Of a DNA stretch of 29,839 nucleotides, positions 1,612-18,738 are shown in pieces. This stretch comes from a virus. Below the pieces are notes generated by a model. That model was not told the origin of the DNA, ran no database searches, and saw only the letters and a program-made list of their open reading frames with translations. Positions within the stretch are counted from its first letter, which is position 1. Each line of letters opens with the position of its first letter. The translations under genes and the position numbers were made by a program. Location of the stretch: UHGV virus genome UHGV-0042155; one strand, given 5' to 3'.

Positions 1612-2235
1612 TTAATTATTACTACACCCAAACGATCTATAACCGTCATCAAAGTTCTTGCTTTTCACTTTGGTGAGATAATCAATTCGATTCAGTAAAT
1701 CGTCGGGATAAATATCATTAAGAATATCATCACGATTCAGGGTATATTTACCATTAGAAGGATACTGTACTAGGTGCTGTCCCTCTTCGGGAGTTATACT
1801 TAATGCGCTGCACCATGCCGAGGTGATCATAGTTCTTAACGTATCTTCATCAAGATTGAAATCCCCTAAGTGGTAGTAAGCATCCTTGTTCAGAAACAGA
1901 AATACGTGAAAATGACGCTTACCATTCTGGGTAAATTCCCTCACCCACGCATAGCGGAGCGTATTCGGGTGTACCCGTTTACCTTCTTTACGCTTGCGCT
2001 GTTCATCTGCTGCCAGTTTGGCTTTCAGTGAATTGGTAAATCTTGATATAGATCCTGAATCAGTATTAGCGATACAGGAAATAGTATCACCATTATCCAG
2101 CATAACCGGGTCATGCAGATCCACCCGTATTGCCAGTGTACGTCCGTGTTCTTTAACAGATTTTGTAATAACATCGATAATCCTTTCTTTGTATGATTTA
2201 ACATGACTGCCATACTCGCTATCGTAGATATTCAT
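1612..2235 (-). CDS. inovirus Gp2-like / YfjJ-family protein
   Basis: 207-aa ORF with the motif RYAWVREFTQNGKRHFHVFLFLNKDAY typical of the YagK/YfjJ (inovirus Gp2-like) family; lies next to the YfjI-like gene as in CP4-57. Confidence 0.75.
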   Translation of the reverse strand: MNIYDSEYGSHVKSYKERIIDVITKSVKEHGRTLAIRVDLHDPVMLDNGDTISCIANTDSGSISRFTNSLKAKLAADEQRKRKEGKRVHPNTLRYAWVREFTQNGKRHFHVFLFLNKDAYYHLGDFNLDEDTLRTMITSAWCSALSITPEEGQHLVQYPSNGKYTLNRDDILNDIYPDDLLNRIDYLTKVKSKNFDDGYRSFGCSNN

Positions 2236-2459: not shown

Positions 2460-3872
2460 TTATATAAGAATATCAACAGGTTGTATGAAAATGGTTTTCC
2501 CTATCTTCTCCGCCCGTATTTTCTTTTGCGAATAAAGTGTACTGAGAAGCTCATTCGCTTTGCTCCGATTCCTGAACCGGTTCGGACCATATTGCAAGAT
2601 GGTTGTCTTCCTGATATATGGCACCACACACCGGTAGCAATAATCTTTTATCCACGAATAAAGTTCATCTGCTTCTGAACTAACCAACAGCAACGTCTGG
2701 GGTTTAGAGAAAATTCTCACATACTCATCCACATACCAGGCGCTTATCTCTACTGCGGCTTCTACGGCACTGAGGGGTATATCCCCTTCATCACCATTAA
2801 ATTTATGCAGCAGAGCGGCAATCCTTGCCATATTTTCCGCCATTTTAGAGGCGTAATCCTTAAAGCCAGACAGGAAGCCAATCAACCCCATTTCTGACTC
2901 GACCTTGTTATAAAATTCGATCCAGTTCTTTTCGGCTTCTGCAGAGAAACGTAGGCACTGACGCGCATTTTCATCATTTCTGACAATGCTCTCGTTAACG
3001 ATCTCCATCAATCGTTTATGAAATACCGGTAGATGCTCGCTTGATATAACCGGGCTGGTAATTTGTCTGTAACCCTGTGTTGAACTAGGCTGACACATCA
3101 AACACCGCGCGAAGAATCCGATCCCTTTCGCTGTATCGCCTTTACGCTCCAGATACCCTTTTTTGAACACATCAGGCTGAACCATCAACGACAGTGTCAT
3201 TCTGGCGTCTTTGATTAATTTATCTGGCTCGCTTTTTCTTTCCACAGTAAACATTGCGCCATCCCACATTTTATTGATGAAAGGCAGTTCATTCAGCGCA
3301 TAGCCGTTAAAAATGGTACCAGCTTCATCAGACATAAGCCCGATGGACCGCCAACAACCACTGAGATAGTCTTTTATCGCCGCTGGTGTGGCATCATTGA
3401 ATATCTGCCTGAACCTGACCGGTGCTTTCGGGTTCGCCGACAGCAGCATTTTCAGCCGTTCATTCGTTGTGGAGTGATCTTTGTTACGGCGAATATCTGA
3501 TTTCAGTTTTGATATCAGGGCTTTCTTTTCAATGTTAAAAGTCGTTTCCTCATTCCGCCAGATAATTAAATCTTGGGTATATTTTTCAAAGCATGCTTCT
3601 TCCAGTTGATACAATGGCTTCATTAGCAGTTTGTCCACCGTGCTTTTGCGTTCACCAGAATCCGCCAGTGTCAGTAAAAAAAGTGATACTGGGCTGCGCA
3701 GATTATTCAGTCGGCACACATCAATCCGGTTCTGGCAGGCAAGCGAAATAACCCCCAACACCGATGCAGCAATCAAAGCCTGGGGTGCCTGCGTATGCTG
3801 TTCCACTTCATAAACCGCATTTCTGATGATCTGCGGGAAGACATGTACAGGGAAAGGACGACCACACGACAT
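2460..3872 (-). CDS. DUF3987-family (YfjI-like) protein
   Basis: 470-aa ORF of the size, strand and position of YfjI, immediately downstream of alpA in a CP4-57-like arrangement. Confidence 0.75.
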   Translation of the reverse strand: MSCGRPFPVHVFPQIIRNAVYEVEQHTQAPQALIAASVLGVISLACQNRIDVCRLNNLRSPVSLFLLTLADSGERKSTVDKLLMKPLYQLEEACFEKYTQDLIIWRNEETTFNIEKKALISKLKSDIRRNKDHSTTNERLKMLLSANPKAPVRFRQIFNDATPAAIKDYLSGCWRSIGLMSDEAGTIFNGYALNELPFINKMWDGAMFTVERKSEPDKLIKDARMTLSLMVQPDVFKKGYLERKGDTAKGIGFFARCLMCQPSSTQGYRQITSPVISSEHLPVFHKRLMEIVNESIVRNDENARQCLRFSAEAEKNWIEFYNKVESEMGLIGFLSGFKDYASKMAENMARIAALLHKFNGDEGDIPLSAVEAAVEISAWYVDEYVRIFSKPQTLLLVSSEADELYSWIKDYCYRCVVPYIRKTTILQYGPNRFRNRSKANELLSTLYSQKKIRAEKIGKTIFIQPVDILI

Positions 3873-4002: not shown

Positions 4003-4215
4003 TCAAATAAGTTTGCTGCGTTGCGATAGCCATTCTTCAATCTCTGATTCAACCCATCCAACAGATTTCACTCCGAGCATTCGCTTTTTGGGGAAGGAAG
4101 CATCGTAACGTGGTGATTTGGGGTTCAACCAATCGTAGATTGTTGCTCGTGCCATACCAGTTTTTTGGATAACAGCAGGTAAGCGGAGTATCCTAACGGT
4201 TGATGGATTATTCAT
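4003..4215 (-). CDS. alpA: AlpA-family phage transcriptional regulator
   Basis: 70-aa ORF MNNPSTVRILRLPAVIQKTGMARATIYDWLNPKSPRYDASFPKKRMLGVKSVGW..., near-identical to E. coli AlpA as recalled. Confidence 0.9.
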   Translation of the reverse strand: MNNPSTVRILRLPAVIQKTGMARATIYDWLNPKSPRYDASFPKKRMLGVKSVGWVESEIEEWLSQRSKLI

Positions 4216-4340
4216 GCTTGATTGCCTCTTATTAGTTCATTTTGGTTGTAGAAAGATTAGCGGCAAGCATCAATGCAAAAAATCCGTGTACCAAAAAAAC
4301 ATTTTTTACAACACTTAACTAATTGATATTTGGTGTATTT

Positions 4341-5219
4341 ATGTTGTCAGCGATTGAGTTTTGCGAAGAAATTAGTCAAAAATCGGATTGGCTTGCTGGG
4401 CATATGGTCGAATGTGATTGGGACATATATGTTGATCTGCTCAGCGAAAGGTATCCCGTGATACAGAAGGAACTAAGCGAGATGCGAGATCAATTCTGGA
4501 ATTCTGATAAGGTAGGAACACGTGTGATTTTGTACAGTGATCCATCTCGTAAGGAGTATAAATATTGTACTGTTGACGGAGTGGAGCAATTAAAAGAAGA
4601 ATATACAGAAGTATATGATCCAGCTCAGGAATGCTGGAAACAGTTAAAATCACGTATTTTCAGGGAAACGTTTTGTCATCTTATTCAGGATGATTTTTTA
4701 ATTAATGATGTGTTTAAGTCACATCTATTTTTTGCCTCAATGTCTTATCAATGGGCAAAATCAGTTATGTCGGAGAATGAATGTGTCGCTATTAAAGCGT
4801 TCATTAAGTCAGCTGAATTATTTGATAGATGTATTGGTATGTCATGGTTTCATGTTTCTGTATGTACCCAAAAAAAATTATCACATGTTAGAGCTAAGGC
4901 CGGAAAACAAGGTGGGAACAGTAAATCAGAGGTATATCGAATAATTCAAGATAAGCTTGTTTATTTGATCAATAACTCCGTACCTGAAGGTGGGTGGAAA
5001 AGTAAAGCAGCTGCGGTGAATGACCTCATTGACCCCTTATGGAAATTTGTCGAAGAGTCAAATTTTGAAATTAATAATCAAAGTAAAAAATATCGGATAT
5101 CAACAATGAGCCCTGATGCATTGGCAGATACCATTATAAAAAACTGGTCAAGAAATATTGAGAGTATCAAATTGGCTTTCGATAATACGGTTACTAGAAA
5201 AAAGAAAACCAAAGGGTAA
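4341..5219 (+). CDS. hypothetical AT-rich orphan protein at the intA-alpA position (yfjH-equivalent locus)
   Basis: Long ORF convergent with intA; the track start at 4323 is TTG, the first ATG is 4341. Low GC relative to flanks. No recognisable motif. Confidence 0.55.
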   Translation: MLSAIEFCEEISQKSDWLAGHMVECDWDIYVDLLSERYPVIQKELSEMRDQFWNSDKVGTRVILYSDPSRKEYKYCTVDGVEQLKEEYTEVYDPAQECWKQLKSRIFRETFCHLIQDDFLINDVFKSHLFFASMSYQWAKSVMSENECVAIKAFIKSAELFDRCIGMSWFHVSVCTQKKLSHVRAKAGKQGGNSKSEVYRIIQDKLVYLINNSVPEGGWKSKAAAVNDLIDPLWKFVEESNFEINNQSKKYRISTMSPDALADTIIKNWSRNIESIKLAFDNTVTRKKKTKG

Positions 5220-5277
5220 AATTCCGTATTACCTATAGGTGAGTTATCAGCACCCATTATGGGTGCTGATAAAGGAT

Positions 5278-6519
5278 TCATCCTACAAGACGTATTCCCC
5301 TAACCCCACTATTCACGATACTGCCGCTATCTGCTGCTTTAACAAAATCAGCCCACCACTGCATCATCGGTCGTCGTTGCTCAAGATAGTCACTTCGATT
5401 GTAAGCGCGACGTACCTCATTCTTATCTACATGAGCAAGTGCAGCCTCAATAACATCAGGCGGAAATCCTTCCTCATTGAGTGCCGTACTGGCAATAGAA
5501 CGTAAGCCGTGTGAAACGAGTACGCCTCCTAAACCAGCACGCTTAAGGGCTGCATTTACTGTCTGGCTGTTCATAGGCTGGGTAGGCTTAATGCGACTGG
5601 GAAAGATAAATTCTCGACCACCGCTGAGAGACTTCATTATTTCCAGAATAGCGAGAGCTCCATCAGATAATGGAACCGTATGCTCCCGATTCATCTTCAT
5701 TCGAGCAGCTGGAATTTTCCATTCGCTAGCATCGAAATCGATCTCATCCCATCGAGCCTCAGCAGCTTCGGCAGGGCGGGTGATGGTGAGAAGCTGCCAC
5801 ATGAACAGGCATCGTGTGGACAGGCTGATACTTGCCGTACGCATAGTCTGCATTAGCTGTGGAAGTTGACCTGGGTGGATGCTTGGCATGTTTTTCTTTT
5901 GCGGTTTCTCGAATGCTTTCCCGATGTTTACGCTGGGAACCGCATCAATCAGGCCTGTGTTCTGCGCATAAATCATGACTTCGTTAATACGCTGACAAAG
6001 GCGGCGGACTGTCTCTAATGCACCTCTGGCCTGAACCGGATGAACTGCTTTAACCAAAGTATGAGCCTTAATCTCAGTGACACTGATATCACCGATTGCC
6101 GGGAGAACATCCCTCTCAAGCGAGCGCCAGATATCGTCGGCATAGTCCTCTGTTACGCTGGCTTTCTTCACATTCCACCAACGCTCGGCAACTAACCGGA
6201 AAGTGTTGGTTTTGGCCTCTTGAGAATTTCTCACCTGTTCTTTCTGATGTTCCTGAGGATCAATGTCTTTCGCCAACAAAACTCGAGATTCAGCTCTGAG
6301 TTTACGCGCATCAGAAAGGGAGACGGCTGGATAGGCTCCGAAGCTCTGCTTGGTTCGCTGCTTGGTCAGAGGTCGATAGTAACGGAACTGCCAGAGCTTA
6401 CTACCGCTGGACTTGATTAGCAGAGTAAGCCCGTCACCATCATACAGCTGGTAATCGGCATCTTTAGGTTTGGCGGCTTTGATTTCCGTATCGGTTAACG
6501 GCTTGGTTTTTCTTGCCAT
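5278..6519 (-). CDS. intA: P4-type tyrosine integrase (CP4-57 IntA-like)
   Basis: 413-aa ORF MARKTKPLTDTEIKAAKPKDADYQLYDGDGLTLLIKSSGSKLWQFRYY...; length and N-terminus match CP4-57 IntA; sits next to the tmRNA 3'-end fragment. Confidence 0.9.
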   Translation of the reverse strand: MARKTKPLTDTEIKAAKPKDADYQLYDGDGLTLLIKSSGSKLWQFRYYRPLTKQRTKQSFGAYPAVSLSDARKLRAESRVLLAKDIDPQEHQKEQVRNSQEAKTNTFRLVAERWWNVKKASVTEDYADDIWRSLERDVLPAIGDISVTEIKAHTLVKAVHPVQARGALETVRRLCQRINEVMIYAQNTGLIDAVPSVNIGKAFEKPQKKNMPSIHPGQLPQLMQTMRTASISLSTRCLFMWQLLTITRPAEAAEARWDEIDFDASEWKIPAARMKMNREHTVPLSDGALAILEIMKSLSGGREFIFPSRIKPTQPMNSQTVNAALKRAGLGGVLVSHGLRSIASTALNEEGFPPDVIEAALAHVDKNEVRRAYNRSDYLEQRRPMMQWWADFVKAADSGSIVNSGVRGIRLVG

Positions 6520-6543: not shown

Positions 6544-6641
6544 NNNNNNNNNNNNNNNNNNNNNNNNNNNNNNNNNNNNNNNNNNNNNNNNNNNNNNNNN
6601 NNNNNNNNNNNNNNNNNNNNNNNNNNNNNNNNNNNNNNNNN
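6544..6641. other. assembly gap (run of N)
   Basis: 98 consecutive N characters. Confidence 0.99.
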
Positions 6642-6714
6642 GGGCCTATCAATGGGCCTAAAAGGTTCGGATTTAATTAGTTCTCTTCGGACTTCGCGGG
6701 ACAAATTCAGGGCA

Positions 6715-6747
6715 CAAAAAAGCCCGCAGGGCTTGCGCCGTGCGGGC
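6715..6747 (-). terminator. rho-independent terminator downstream of the tmRNA 3'-end fragment
   Basis: Stem agcccgca (6720-6727) pairs with tgcgggct (6740-6747); a T-run follows on the minus strand (plus-strand A-run 6715-6720). Confidence 0.6.
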
Positions 6748-6794
6748 TCTTAGGACTTCATCGGATGACTCTGGTAATCACCGATGGAGAATTT

Positions 6795-6828
6795 TGGTGG
6801 AGCTGGCGGGAGTTGAACCCGTGTCCGA
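6795..6828 (-). other. tmRNA (ssrA) 3'-terminal fragment; attachment core shared by the two elements
   Basis: Minus-strand sequence TTCGGACACGGGTTCAACTCCCGCCAGCTCCACCA matches the T-arm, acceptor 3' strand and CCA end of enterobacterial tmRNA; sequence further 5' (6829 onward) does not look like tmRNA body. Confidence 0.7.
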
Positions 6829-6953
6829 ATAATGCTTAACCTATTGAATATTAATGTTTTGTCTTTTTTGAAAGGCCTCAAGTGCATTTTACGTGCATAT
6901 CGTGGTCCCTCTAACGTCCTGATTCCGTCCAACATTTTGAAATACTCACGACG

Positions 6954-8126
6954 CTACAGAGCTGCTGAAATGGCGGTTTTCCCGTCGTATTCAGCCAGGT
7001 ATTTACCGTAATTGCGGAACAGCATTTCCGGCCCTTTATGCCCCATCTGCCCGGCAAGCCAGAAAAGGTTTACGCCCTGGCTAATGTGTCTGGTGGCGAA
7101 TGTGTGGCGGGTCTGGTACGGGTTACGGTATCGAACGCCAGCTTTTTTGAGGGTTGGCACCCATGCTTTTTTTCGTATTGCGTCGGCGTTCGCCCAGGGC
7201 TCTCCCGTTTTAGGGTCGCTGAAAATAAACTCGCTTTTCATGAAAGTGAATTGTTTCTGCGCCTGCAGCGCGGCCAGCGCCTCGCTGTTTAATTCTACTT
7301 TACGGGTACCGGCTTTTGTTTTGGTGCCTTTCAGAACGCCAACAACACTCGCCGCCTGAACGTGAGCTGTTTTAGCGATATTGTCGAGATCAGGCCAGCG
7401 CAACGCACACAGCTCAGAGCTGCGTAAACCTGTATTGAATGCGAAACGGAACAGGTTTTCCCATTCCGGATAACTGCAGCTCTGGTAAATGGCGCTGATT
7501 TCCGCTGGTGTGAACGGATCAACTTCGTAATCGTCACTATTCGGGCTGCTGTCGATCACGTGGTACCGACTCGCGCTGACAAGGGTTACCGGGTTGATAG
7601 TCAGCAGGCCGTCTGTCACCGCTTCATCTATGGCGCTGCGCAGAAACGAGAGGTTATTCCTGATTGTTTTCAGCTTTGTTTTTCTGCTGGCGATCCAGTT
7701 TTTGAGGACCGCAGGGGTCAGTTCCGATACATGCATTTTGTGCAGCGCAGATAGCGCAGACAGGCACTTTTCATAACCGCCAATAGTGGACGGCGAAAGG
7801 TTGCGGTTCTGGCAGATTTTCAGATACTCGTCCAGGTAGGACTTAATATTTTTGGTTTTCTTCACTACCCCGAACAGCTCCAGTTTTTTGGAGGTGGGGA
7901 AGTATTTCGCATAATCGAATGTGCCGCCGGCGATCTGATTCTGTATCTCCCCCAGCAGGCGCTCGGCATACTTCACGCCGCGCGCGTTTGCTTCCATTCT
8001 GGAAAGGGGCTCCCGGCAGAGAACCCCCTTGTAGGTGAATGTGATCACCAGGGTGTCGCCAGTTTTATGCTGGCGAATGGTTACTCCTCTTGGGAGAGAT
8101 AATGATCCTTGTTCTTTCTTGCCCAC
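6954..8126 (-). CDS. lambdoid-phage tyrosine integrase
   Basis: 390-aa ORF with an N-terminal arm-binding-like region and C-terminal catalytic region (R...HTFATRH...Y); transcribed toward the att core, overlapped at its 5' end by xis. Confidence 0.9.
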   Translation of the reverse strand: MGKKEQGSLSLPRGVTIRQHKTGDTLVITFTYKGVLCREPLSRMEANARGVKYAERLLGEIQNQIAGGTFDYAKYFPTSKKLELFGVVKKTKNIKSYLDEYLKICQNRNLSPSTIGGYEKCLSALSALHKMHVSELTPAVLKNWIASRKTKLKTIRNNLSFLRSAIDEAVTDGLLTINPVTLVSASRYHVIDSSPNSDDYEVDPFTPAEISAIYQSCSYPEWENLFRFAFNTGLRSSELCALRWPDLDNIAKTAHVQAASVVGVLKGTKTKAGTRKVELNSEALAALQAQKQFTFMKSEFIFSDPKTGEPWANADAIRKKAWVPTLKKAGVRYRNPYQTRHTFATRHISQGVNLFWLAGQMGHKGPEMLFRNYGKYLAEYDGKTAISAAL

Positions 8127-17991: not shown

Positions 17992-18068
17992 GGCCCTTTA
18001 GCTCAGTTGGTTAGAGCGTGCGACTCATAATCGCCCGGTCGCTGGTTCAAGTCCAGCAAGGGCCACCA
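17992..18068 (+). tRNA. tRNA with CAU anticodon (Ile2/lysidine-type or Met)
   Basis: Cloverleaf read by hand: acceptor ggccctt/aagggcc, D arm gctc...gagc, anticodon loop ctCATaa, T arm gctgg-ttcaagt-ccagc, encoded CCA; resembles enterobacterial tRNA-Ile2. Confidence 0.85.
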
Positions 18069-18070
18069 GA

Positions 18071-18144
18071 CCGCCACTAGCTCATCGGGAAGAGCGGCAA
18101 CCCAGGTGTTGTGGTACGGGGTTCGAGGCTCCGGTGGCGGACCA
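18071..18144 (+). tRNA. tRNA-like gene with non-canonical 6-nt anticodon loop (possible pseudogene)
   Basis: Good acceptor (ccgccac/gtggcgg), D arm and T arm and an encoded CCA, but the best anticodon fold is gcaac-ccaggt-gttgt with a 6-nt loop. Confidence 0.5.
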
Positions 18145-18146
18145 CT

Positions 18147-18222
<76 letters not shown>

Positions 18223-18225
18223 TAT

Positions 18226-18300
<75 letters not shown>

Positions 18301-18680
18301 GTTTAAGCTTTTCGGTCTGCGATGATGGGTTCCCCGGAGTGACTGGAAAGCGACCTGGTTTTGAATGGGCGCTGCTTTTTGCAAAATTGCTGTGTGAAAA
18401 TACTGACCTTTGGGTTCAGCGCTCATCCAAAAGCATCACGTGAATTCACCAACGCTCATGTACTCTCCAGGAAACAATAAGTGATTCTGAAAAGTTCCGG
18501 TTAGATATTGCCCCGGTCACCGGATGATTTTATCTTTTGGTTCGTGGTGAATCCCCCTATGCGGCGGGGCGTCCAGTCAAACTTTTTTGTCCAGGTTTGT
18601 TTGCGCGGAACTAGTCGGCTGGGGCTGTTCCACCGGGAGGCACCCGGCGCCACCTCCTTGACGGTATTGTTATTTTTCAT

Positions 18681-18707
18681 GCCTGTTCGTCCGAGCAGGC
18701 TTTTTTT
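18681..18707 (+). terminator. strong rho-independent terminator
   Basis: 8-bp stem (18681-18688 with 18693-18700) followed by TTTTTTT at 18701-18707. Confidence 0.6.
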
Positions 18708-18738
18708 GCCCGCATTATCTTCATTGAAAACTGGCAAC

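Follow-up and report, generated by a model that had tools for sequence, protein, structure and literature searches.

We analyzed a stretch of virus genome UHGV-0042155 (29,839 nucleotides, referred to here as the window) and, within it, an AT-rich open reading frame (ORF) that lies between intA and alpA of an island resembling CP4-57 of Escherichia coli K-12. The studied interval is matched at 100% by the chromosome of E. coli MS 115-1 (NZ_CP146665.1). The sequence comparisons described below leave us in little doubt that the ORF is the MS 115-1 allele of yfjH, and that this gene belongs to the core of CP4-57-type AlpA islands and is not cargo. The genes around it are the following.

4341 to 5219, plus strand: yfjH-family coding sequence, MS 115-1 allele, 292 amino acids, WP_000947284.1 (ORF list, RefSeq annotation, and homology)
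4216 to 4340: divergent yfjH-alpA control region, between the two starts
4003 to 4215, minus strand: alpA, AlpA-family regulator/excisionase and divergent partner of yfjH (Pfam Phage_AlpA, E = 6e-24)
2460 to 3872, minus strand: yfjI (DUF3987, by Pfam), in the alpA operon
1612 to 2235, minus strand: yfjJ (YagK/YfjJ_C, inovirus Gp2-like Rep, by Pfam), the last backbone gene
5278 to 6519, minus strand: intA, tyrosine integrase of the island (Phage_integrase, E = 3.7e-36; 94% identical to K-12 IntA)

The ORF list places the yfjH-family gene at 4323 to 5219 (plus strand) with a TTG start; according to RefSeq (WP_000947284.1, "hypothetical protein") and to every homologue in the family alignment, translation begins at the ATG at 4341, and the protein has exactly 292 amino acids. 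The gene has alpA on one side and intA on the other; it is convergent with intA, with 58 bp between their stop codons, and divergent from alpA, with 125 bp separating the starts. Its GC content is 36.1% (31.7% at third codon positions) compared with 49.3% for intA and 48.1% for the whole window. An earlier note on this DNA had described an AT-rich ORF of about 292 amino acids between intA and alpA and convergent with intA, and both the coordinates and the composition agree with that description. Its assignment of the locus to a CP4-57-like island also holds, as IntA, AlpA, YfjI, and YfjJ are homologous to their counterparts in K-12 CP4-57 (94%, 90%, 75%, and 54% identity, respectively) and the end of ssrA is present.

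Compared with alleles at 84% to 94% amino acid identity, the yfjH-family gene has a ratio of nonsynonymous to synonymous substitution rates (dN/dS) of 0.16 to 0.26. The first ~120 codons evolve faster (~0.3 to 0.4) than the C-terminal third (~0.1 to 0.2). Because the ratio is this low and full-length ORFs remain intact down to ~20% identity in many genera, selection acts on the YfjH protein, and by these measures the ORF is a real gene under purifying selection. The same two observations speak against the view that yfjH has little protein function at present and is either an AT-rich H-NS nucleation region silencing alpA and intA or a decaying remnant. K-12 yfjH is moreover transcribed: the gene and the region downstream of it are transcribed in vitro by sigma-S RNA polymerase (PMC3141248), and an acid shift causes a two-fold rise of yfjH (PMC2270276). 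We regard the silencing or remnant view as very unlikely, although the GC content of 36% is in line with it, as are the silencing by H-NS of the promoter of alpA in CP4So, a related island (PMC5148205), and the apparent truncation of the window island at IS1. It also draws on the finding that in 3 of ~24 islands (L042, L046, and L075) two ORFs stand in place of an intact yfjH-family gene, probably due to frameshifts.

The window protein is 59% identical to K-12 YfjH (b2623) over 291 amino acids (BLASTP, E = 1e-127) and is covered end to end by PHROG 19089 (residues 1 to 292 of 292, E = 3.7e-201). K-12 YfjH occupies the matching slot of CP4-57 in the matching orientation, convergent with intA and divergent from alpA. 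The ORF is therefore not an orphan, as the earlier note had called it, but a new allele of the already known and uncharacterized YfjH family, and its novelty is modest; K-12 yfjH itself remains in the list of uncharacterized genes (the y-ome, 2024; PMC11551758). The K-12 and window proteins are alike in their full-length homology, slot, orientation, and island type, and neither has a known domain. However, they represent distinct allele classes, with nucleotide identity of 56% to 75% across the gene as opposed to 84% to 95% in the intA and alpA flanks, and K-12 has ~190 bp more DNA between yfjH and intA. K-12 YfjH also has 27 extra annotated N-terminal residues that find no support in the family alignment. 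The K-12 gene (L009, 3145 to 4101) is annotated as encoding 318 amino acids, and all homologues align from its Met28, suggesting that the annotated start probably lies 27 codons too far upstream.

Homologues of YfjH were recovered in a word-indexed search as 34 clusters, every one labeled "hypothetical," from Escherichia, Enterobacter, Raoultella, Yersinia, Citrobacter, Salmonella, and Pantoea. A second word-indexed search with a broad alignment added nearly no new homologues and did not return K-12 YfjH itself. An exhaustive profile search of 1.84 billion representatives yielded 94 YfjH-family clusters, the distant ones being 240 to 315 amino acids long, homologous across most of their length, and down to ~20% identical. 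The named members checked belonged to the Enterobacterales without exception, and all were hypothetical. In a narrower scan of viral contigs, the copies of yfjH found were all prophage adjacent.

The occupancy of the slot was surveyed in 80 loci from as many species, each with a gene for an IntA relative at 81% to 97% identity; the loci were scanned with a YfjH profile and with the window AlpA, YfjI, and YfjJ proteins. An alpA gene co-oriented with int was present within 7 kb in 22 loci, and in 21 of them a YfjH-family gene lay directly upstream of alpA in divergent orientation. The exception, L054, has an unrelated 430-amino-acid gene facing alpA. The pairing of yfjH with alpA was also seen for distant subfamilies that are only ~20% identical, and it was kept despite 1.4 to 6 kb between int and yfjH (for example, in L017 and L044). 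Loci L027, L057, and L083 contain a YfjH-family gene and end before any alpA is visible. The order int-yfjH-alpA-DUF3987-YfjJ was found for all three homologues at 45% to 60% identity (P0021, P0025, and P0029), and in L002 to L008 yfjH likewise lies between intA and alpA, convergent with the former and divergent from the latter. A DNA match to the yfjH family was obtained in 419 complete E. coli genomes and the alpA type of the window in 420; the MS 115-1-like yfjH allele is present in about 38 to 40.

This comparison of the slot across related islands, which the earlier note had proposed as a check on its suggestion that the gene is interchangeable cargo, thus revealed one gene family and no turnover. 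The survey did not show unrelated genes taking turns between conserved flanks, as 21 of the 22 islands share the one family, and where cargo is present, it sits beside yfjH. The pattern bears directly on the idea from the same note that YfjH is a single-gene anti-phage or phage interference determinant carried as cargo beside the integrase gene. The gene does have the AT-rich, foreign composition and the integrase-adjacent position expected of such cargo; its alleles diverge more than the flanking genes do, and genuine defense systems occupy neighboring positions in relatives. Nevertheless, the slot is held by the same family in essentially all related islands, the inserts in relatives do not replace yfjH, and the protein has neither a PADLOC match nor a conserved catalytic-type residue. 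We therefore consider an anti-phage role as cargo highly improbable.

The integrase-proximal position is nonetheless a real insertion point for defense cargo in this island family. Lamassu genes encoding LmuA/LmuB plus LmuC lie between int and the alpA-facing gene in L054 (8459 to 12152), Lamassu LmuA/LmuB genes lie between int and the YfjH-like gene in L083 (8608 to 11998), and a HEPN_LA2681 protein is encoded beside a 1,356-amino-acid NTPase between int and the YfjH-like gene in L057 (8408 to 14101). The defense hotspot that the earlier note had placed next to the integrase is accordingly confirmed as a position, but yfjH is not its cargo: since the inserts lie between int and yfjH, the latter marks the edge of the conserved core. 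In the window this insertion point is empty and consists of 58 bp bearing a hairpin. A second variable position lies beyond yfjJ and is occupied in the window by a SIR2-like gene.

5246 to 5270: hairpin with an 11-bp stem and no U-tract, between the convergent yfjH and intA stop codons
119 to 1522, plus strand: SIR2-like gene, 467 amino acids, in the variable cargo position beyond yfjJ

The segment from 5205 to 5290 folds with a minimum free energy of -30.8 kcal/mol (z = -5.07 against shuffles). A scan for canonical terminators found none in the gap between yfjH and intA, and the hairpin is possibly a bidirectional transcription barrier. The SIR2-like protein matches Pfam SIR2_2 at E = 1e-4, which is below the family cutoff, and PADLOC Aga_SIR2/SIR2 families down to E = 2.7e-6; its gene is a more plausible defense candidate than yfjH. 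Elsewhere the position beyond yfjJ contains AbpAB (K-12), a gene for a 1,208-amino-acid DEAD-box helicase-domain protein preceded by a 319-amino-acid ORF (L005), or ABC-3C/MComp-type genes (L002), and an autotransporter is also among the variable genes there (loci of P0021, P0025, and P0029). The islands therefore resemble the P4-like and P2-like defense hotspots in having defense systems inserted near the integrase (L054, L083, and L057) and beyond yfjJ, but differ in that yfjH shows no turnover and forms the conserved flank of the integrase-proximal insertion point. For scans aimed at defense genes, this means that the integrase-adjacent gene of CP4-57-type (ssrA) islands should be treated as backbone and not as candidate defense cargo, the true insertion points being the int-yfjH gap and the position beyond yfjJ.

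In sister IntA islands (L022, L023, L030, L033, L074, and L076), the alpA-DUF3987-YfjJ module is inverted. Several of these have an unrelated, domainless protein of ~600 amino acids (starting MMYVLYQSFGLF...) encoded divergently from alpA. The alpA-divergent genes of L054 and of the inverted-module islands (L074 and others) showed no kinship to YfjH and no Pfam domain. The ~600-amino-acid protein is another uncharacterized alpA partner gene product.

Conservation along the island is uneven. Nucleotide identities to K-12 and protein identities to the window proteins, the latter compared across 15 islands, are as follows.

intA: 90% to 95% nucleotide identity; IntA protein, 84% to 97%
yfjH: 56% to 75% nucleotide identity, with the minimum in the 5' half; YfjH protein, 39% to 94%
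yfjH-alpA control region: 74% to 79% nucleotide identity
alpA: 84% to 89% nucleotide identity; AlpA protein, 73% to 99%
yfjI: 62% to 85% nucleotide identity; YfjI protein, 26% to 97%
yfjJ: about 55% nucleotide identity; YfjJ protein, 33% to 93%

Identity to K-12 drops sharply at the intA stop codon. The alleles are combined as a mosaic: in L011, YfjI is 97% and YfjH 84% identical to the window protein, whereas L013 pairs YfjH at 94% with YfjI at 68%. These ranges, together with the mosaic, show that yfjH is a fast-diverging, recombining allele series of one gene. By these comparisons, yfjH diverges faster than intA and alpA, and its alleles assort independently of those of yfjI and yfjJ.

No conserved domain was identified in the window YfjH by searches of Pfam, NCBIfam, and PADLOC (in PADLOC-DB v2, 0 families at E ≤ 1) or in ten distant relatives by Pfam. 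The earlier note's statement that the protein has no assignable motif is thus correct for these three databases. The structure prediction and remote homology searches that it had also called for were run and assigned no family or fold. AlphaFold2, run with an alignment of 60 sequences, produced a model with a mean predicted local distance difference test (pLDDT) score of 88.3 and a predicted template modeling (pTM) score of 0.72. It is all helical except for a low-confidence beta meander at residues 61 to 91, and a very long helix spans residues 147 to 212. Foldseek comparison of the model to PDB and to the viral models of BFVD gave nothing under E = 0.2 and generic helical matches only. In a profile search of PDB (hmmsearch), the second ribbon-helix-helix repeat of TraY was matched at E = 0.052 over two helices only. 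Profile comparison of YfjH with TraY by hhalign gave a probability of 7.5%, with an approximate TraY query of which only residues 76 to 127 were verified, and the TraY-matching stretch is, in the AlphaFold2 model, part of the long helix and contains no beta strand.

The alignment of 60 YfjH members was more informative. Residues G166, G191, G192, L209, W219, A225, and W269 are the only nearly invariant ones, and the C-terminal part of the window protein has the motif R-x-K-A-G-K-x-G-G-x-x-K-A-E in addition to W219 and W269. No aspartate, glutamate, histidine, or cysteine is conserved in at least 70% of the members. The C-terminal ~110 amino acids are conserved and net positive in 59 of the 60 members (median charge, +8; isoelectric point, 9.8). 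The N-terminal part is variable and usually acidic (median charge, -5.5), and its length ranges from 89 to 173 amino acids across the family (~145 in the window protein). The lack of conserved catalytic-type residues, combined with this split in charge, argues against an enzyme. The sequence features are compatible with YfjH combining a module that binds nucleic acid or protein with a variable domain for specificity.

The control region between yfjH and alpA is better conserved than the yfjH coding sequence, and in nearly all CP4-57-type alleles the two start codons delimit a segment of 131 bp. One element stands out in the region.

4286 to 4314: A6/T6 palindrome (GTGTACCAAAAAAACATTTTTTACAACAC), ~70 to 100 bp upstream of the alpA start, conserved

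The distance from the palindrome to alpA is fixed even in distant islands (L015 and L020) in which the yfjH-like start is 440 bp away, which suggests that the palindrome is an element of the alpA promoter and not a YfjH-specific operator. It is probably an alpA promoter or a site for an architectural protein. Allele-specific operators were sought in the control region and none were found, and a promoter scan detected no convincing sigma-70 sites there.

The gene alpA heads the alpA-yfjI-yfjJ excision/replication operon, and AlpA activates intA and island genes (PMC6092414, PMC11773190). Whether a repressor of their own exists in Gram-negative AlpA islands has been described as unclear (PMC6092414). 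The pairing with alpA, the basic C terminus, the variable N terminus, and the absence of an enzyme signature lead us to the hypothesis that YfjH exerts control or sensing at the alpA switch. As a whole, the best explanation that we can offer, and only tentatively, is that YfjH is the product of a core gene with a regulatory or maintenance role at this switch. The mechanism that we infer, in which a nonenzymatic factor serves regulation or maintenance in connection with the alpA excision/replication switch, is possible but doubtful. In such a mechanism, YfjH would be made by the integrated island and would have as its target either AlpA or the control region between the two genes; the basic C-terminal domain would be the acting part, and the variable N-terminal part would serve as an input or specificity module.

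The position and logic of YfjH resemble the repressor side of a divergent switch, as in Stl/Str of the Staphylococcus aureus pathogenicity islands (SaPIs) and in phage cI/cro. SaPI Stl and Rpr of the phage-inducible chromosomal islands (PICIs) adjoin int and are divergent from the excision/replication operon (Stl layout, PMC6092414), and, like YfjH, they diverge strongly among related islands. In contrast, Stl has a recognizable helix-turn-helix (HTH) domain and is co-oriented with int, whereas no HTH is detectable in YfjH, whose gene converges with int; furthermore, the conserved half of YfjH is C-terminal and its variable half is N-terminal, in which it also differs from Stl. Master repressors of the Stl/Rpr type repress island genes and are relieved by a helper phage protein, properties that would be hypothetical for YfjH, as would DNA binding. 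It is conceivable, although rather unlikely, that the YfjH family provides the regulator so far missing from AlpA-type islands of the Enterobacterales, one encoded by the island itself and forming a Gram-negative analogue of Stl with an unrelated fold. A new DNA- or AlpA-binding domain in the basic C terminus would then be coupled to a fast-evolving N-terminal sensor, the alpA switch would stay off in the absence of a specific signal from phage or stress, and the blocking of the retron toxin RcaT reported for K-12 YfjH (see below) would show another side of this binding module.

Several observations weigh against a role of YfjH at the alpA switch. The alpA promoter of Shewanella CP4So is silenced by host H-NS (PMC5148205), so that an island-encoded repressor is not required, and the classical Gram-negative PICI EcCIMP1 works although its int-alpA interval lacks a YfjH gene. 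The control region does not covary with the yfjH alleles, its palindrome tracking alpA instead, and the splits in 3 of ~24 islands indicate that yfjH is dispensable for island persistence. The sole DNA-binding lead, the TraY ribbon-helix-helix match (E = 0.052), was not confirmed by profile comparison (7.5%); neither an HTH nor another DNA-binding domain was detected in YfjH by Pfam and NCBIfam or in the ten relatives by Pfam, and the fold searches gave matches of a generic helical kind. Finally, the one functional datum for K-12 YfjH points elsewhere, to a block of a retron toxin (bioRxiv 10.1101/2020.06.22.160242).

That datum is the basis for a different explanation, in which YfjH is an anti-defense binder that neutralizes abortive infection toxins, such as RcaT of retron Sen2, and thereby shields the island or a helper phage at mobilization. 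In a genome-wide screen, K-12 yfjH was reported to act, when overexpressed, as a "blocker" of the toxicity of RcaT (bioRxiv 10.1101/2020.06.22.160242; PMC11951105). This is the same screen that is linked to the prophage-encoded retron toxin blockers RacC, DicC, and YdaW (Bobonis et al.). Eleven selected blockers were retested and all specifically relieved RcaT toxicity, although the preprint, in its accessible part, does not state whether yfjH was one of them; chaperones and induction artifacts are also described there among the blockers of this screen (bioRxiv 10.1101/2020.06.22.160242). A nonenzymatic, fast-evolving protein with a variable surface domain would suit a binder engaged in an arms race. 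However, the evidence consists of one phenotype, seen on overexpression of a homologue with 59% identity, and neither the strict divergent pairing with alpA (21 of 22 islands) nor the basic nature of the conserved domain is explained. We consider an anti-defense function improbable.

The tentatively favored role at the alpA switch would be of consequence because this switch governs the loss of CP4-57 and hence ssrA function. Since yfjH is one of the "y-genes" of K-12, the pattern seen in the survey supplies a concrete hypothesis for its role that is cheap to test.

On the other side of intA, the window contains the junction of the island with ssrA and the beginning of a second element.

6544 to 6641: run of N, 98 bases
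6642 to 6829, minus strand: ssrA 3' end plus the ssrA-intA spacer, 98.9% identical to K-12
6795 to 6829, minus strand: fragment of the ssrA 3' end, att core, and island flank (the spacer alongside is 6642 to 6794)
6954 to 8126, minus strand: second integrase, of a tandem lambdoid prophage, unrelated to intA

The window holds the 3' part of ssrA only and not the full gene. The ssrA fragment and spacer, followed by the second integrase, indicate that two elements are integrated in tandem at ssrA. Just past the SIR2-like gene, the MS 115-1 genome in its complete form has an IS1 and a tRNA-Ile gene, and the window island looks like a truncated remnant that ends at IS1. In K-12 and in the complete genome of MS 115-1, only 26 nucleotides take the place of the run of N; they form the center of a hairpin with palindromic arms (GGCCCAACGAAAA...TTTTCGTTGGGCC) shortly upstream of intA. 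As 98 N stand for 26 nucleotides, the window coordinates rightward of the run are off by 72 bases from those of the real sequence.

A search of the studied region against Rfam returned nothing. The prophage contains a tRNA cluster (Met, Thr, and Gly) at 17992 to 18300. ARAGORN also predicted an odd tRNA-like gene with a two-base anticodon at 18071 to 18144, which has no Rfam call, and a match to the STnc100 small RNA follows the tRNA cluster at 18519 to 18711.

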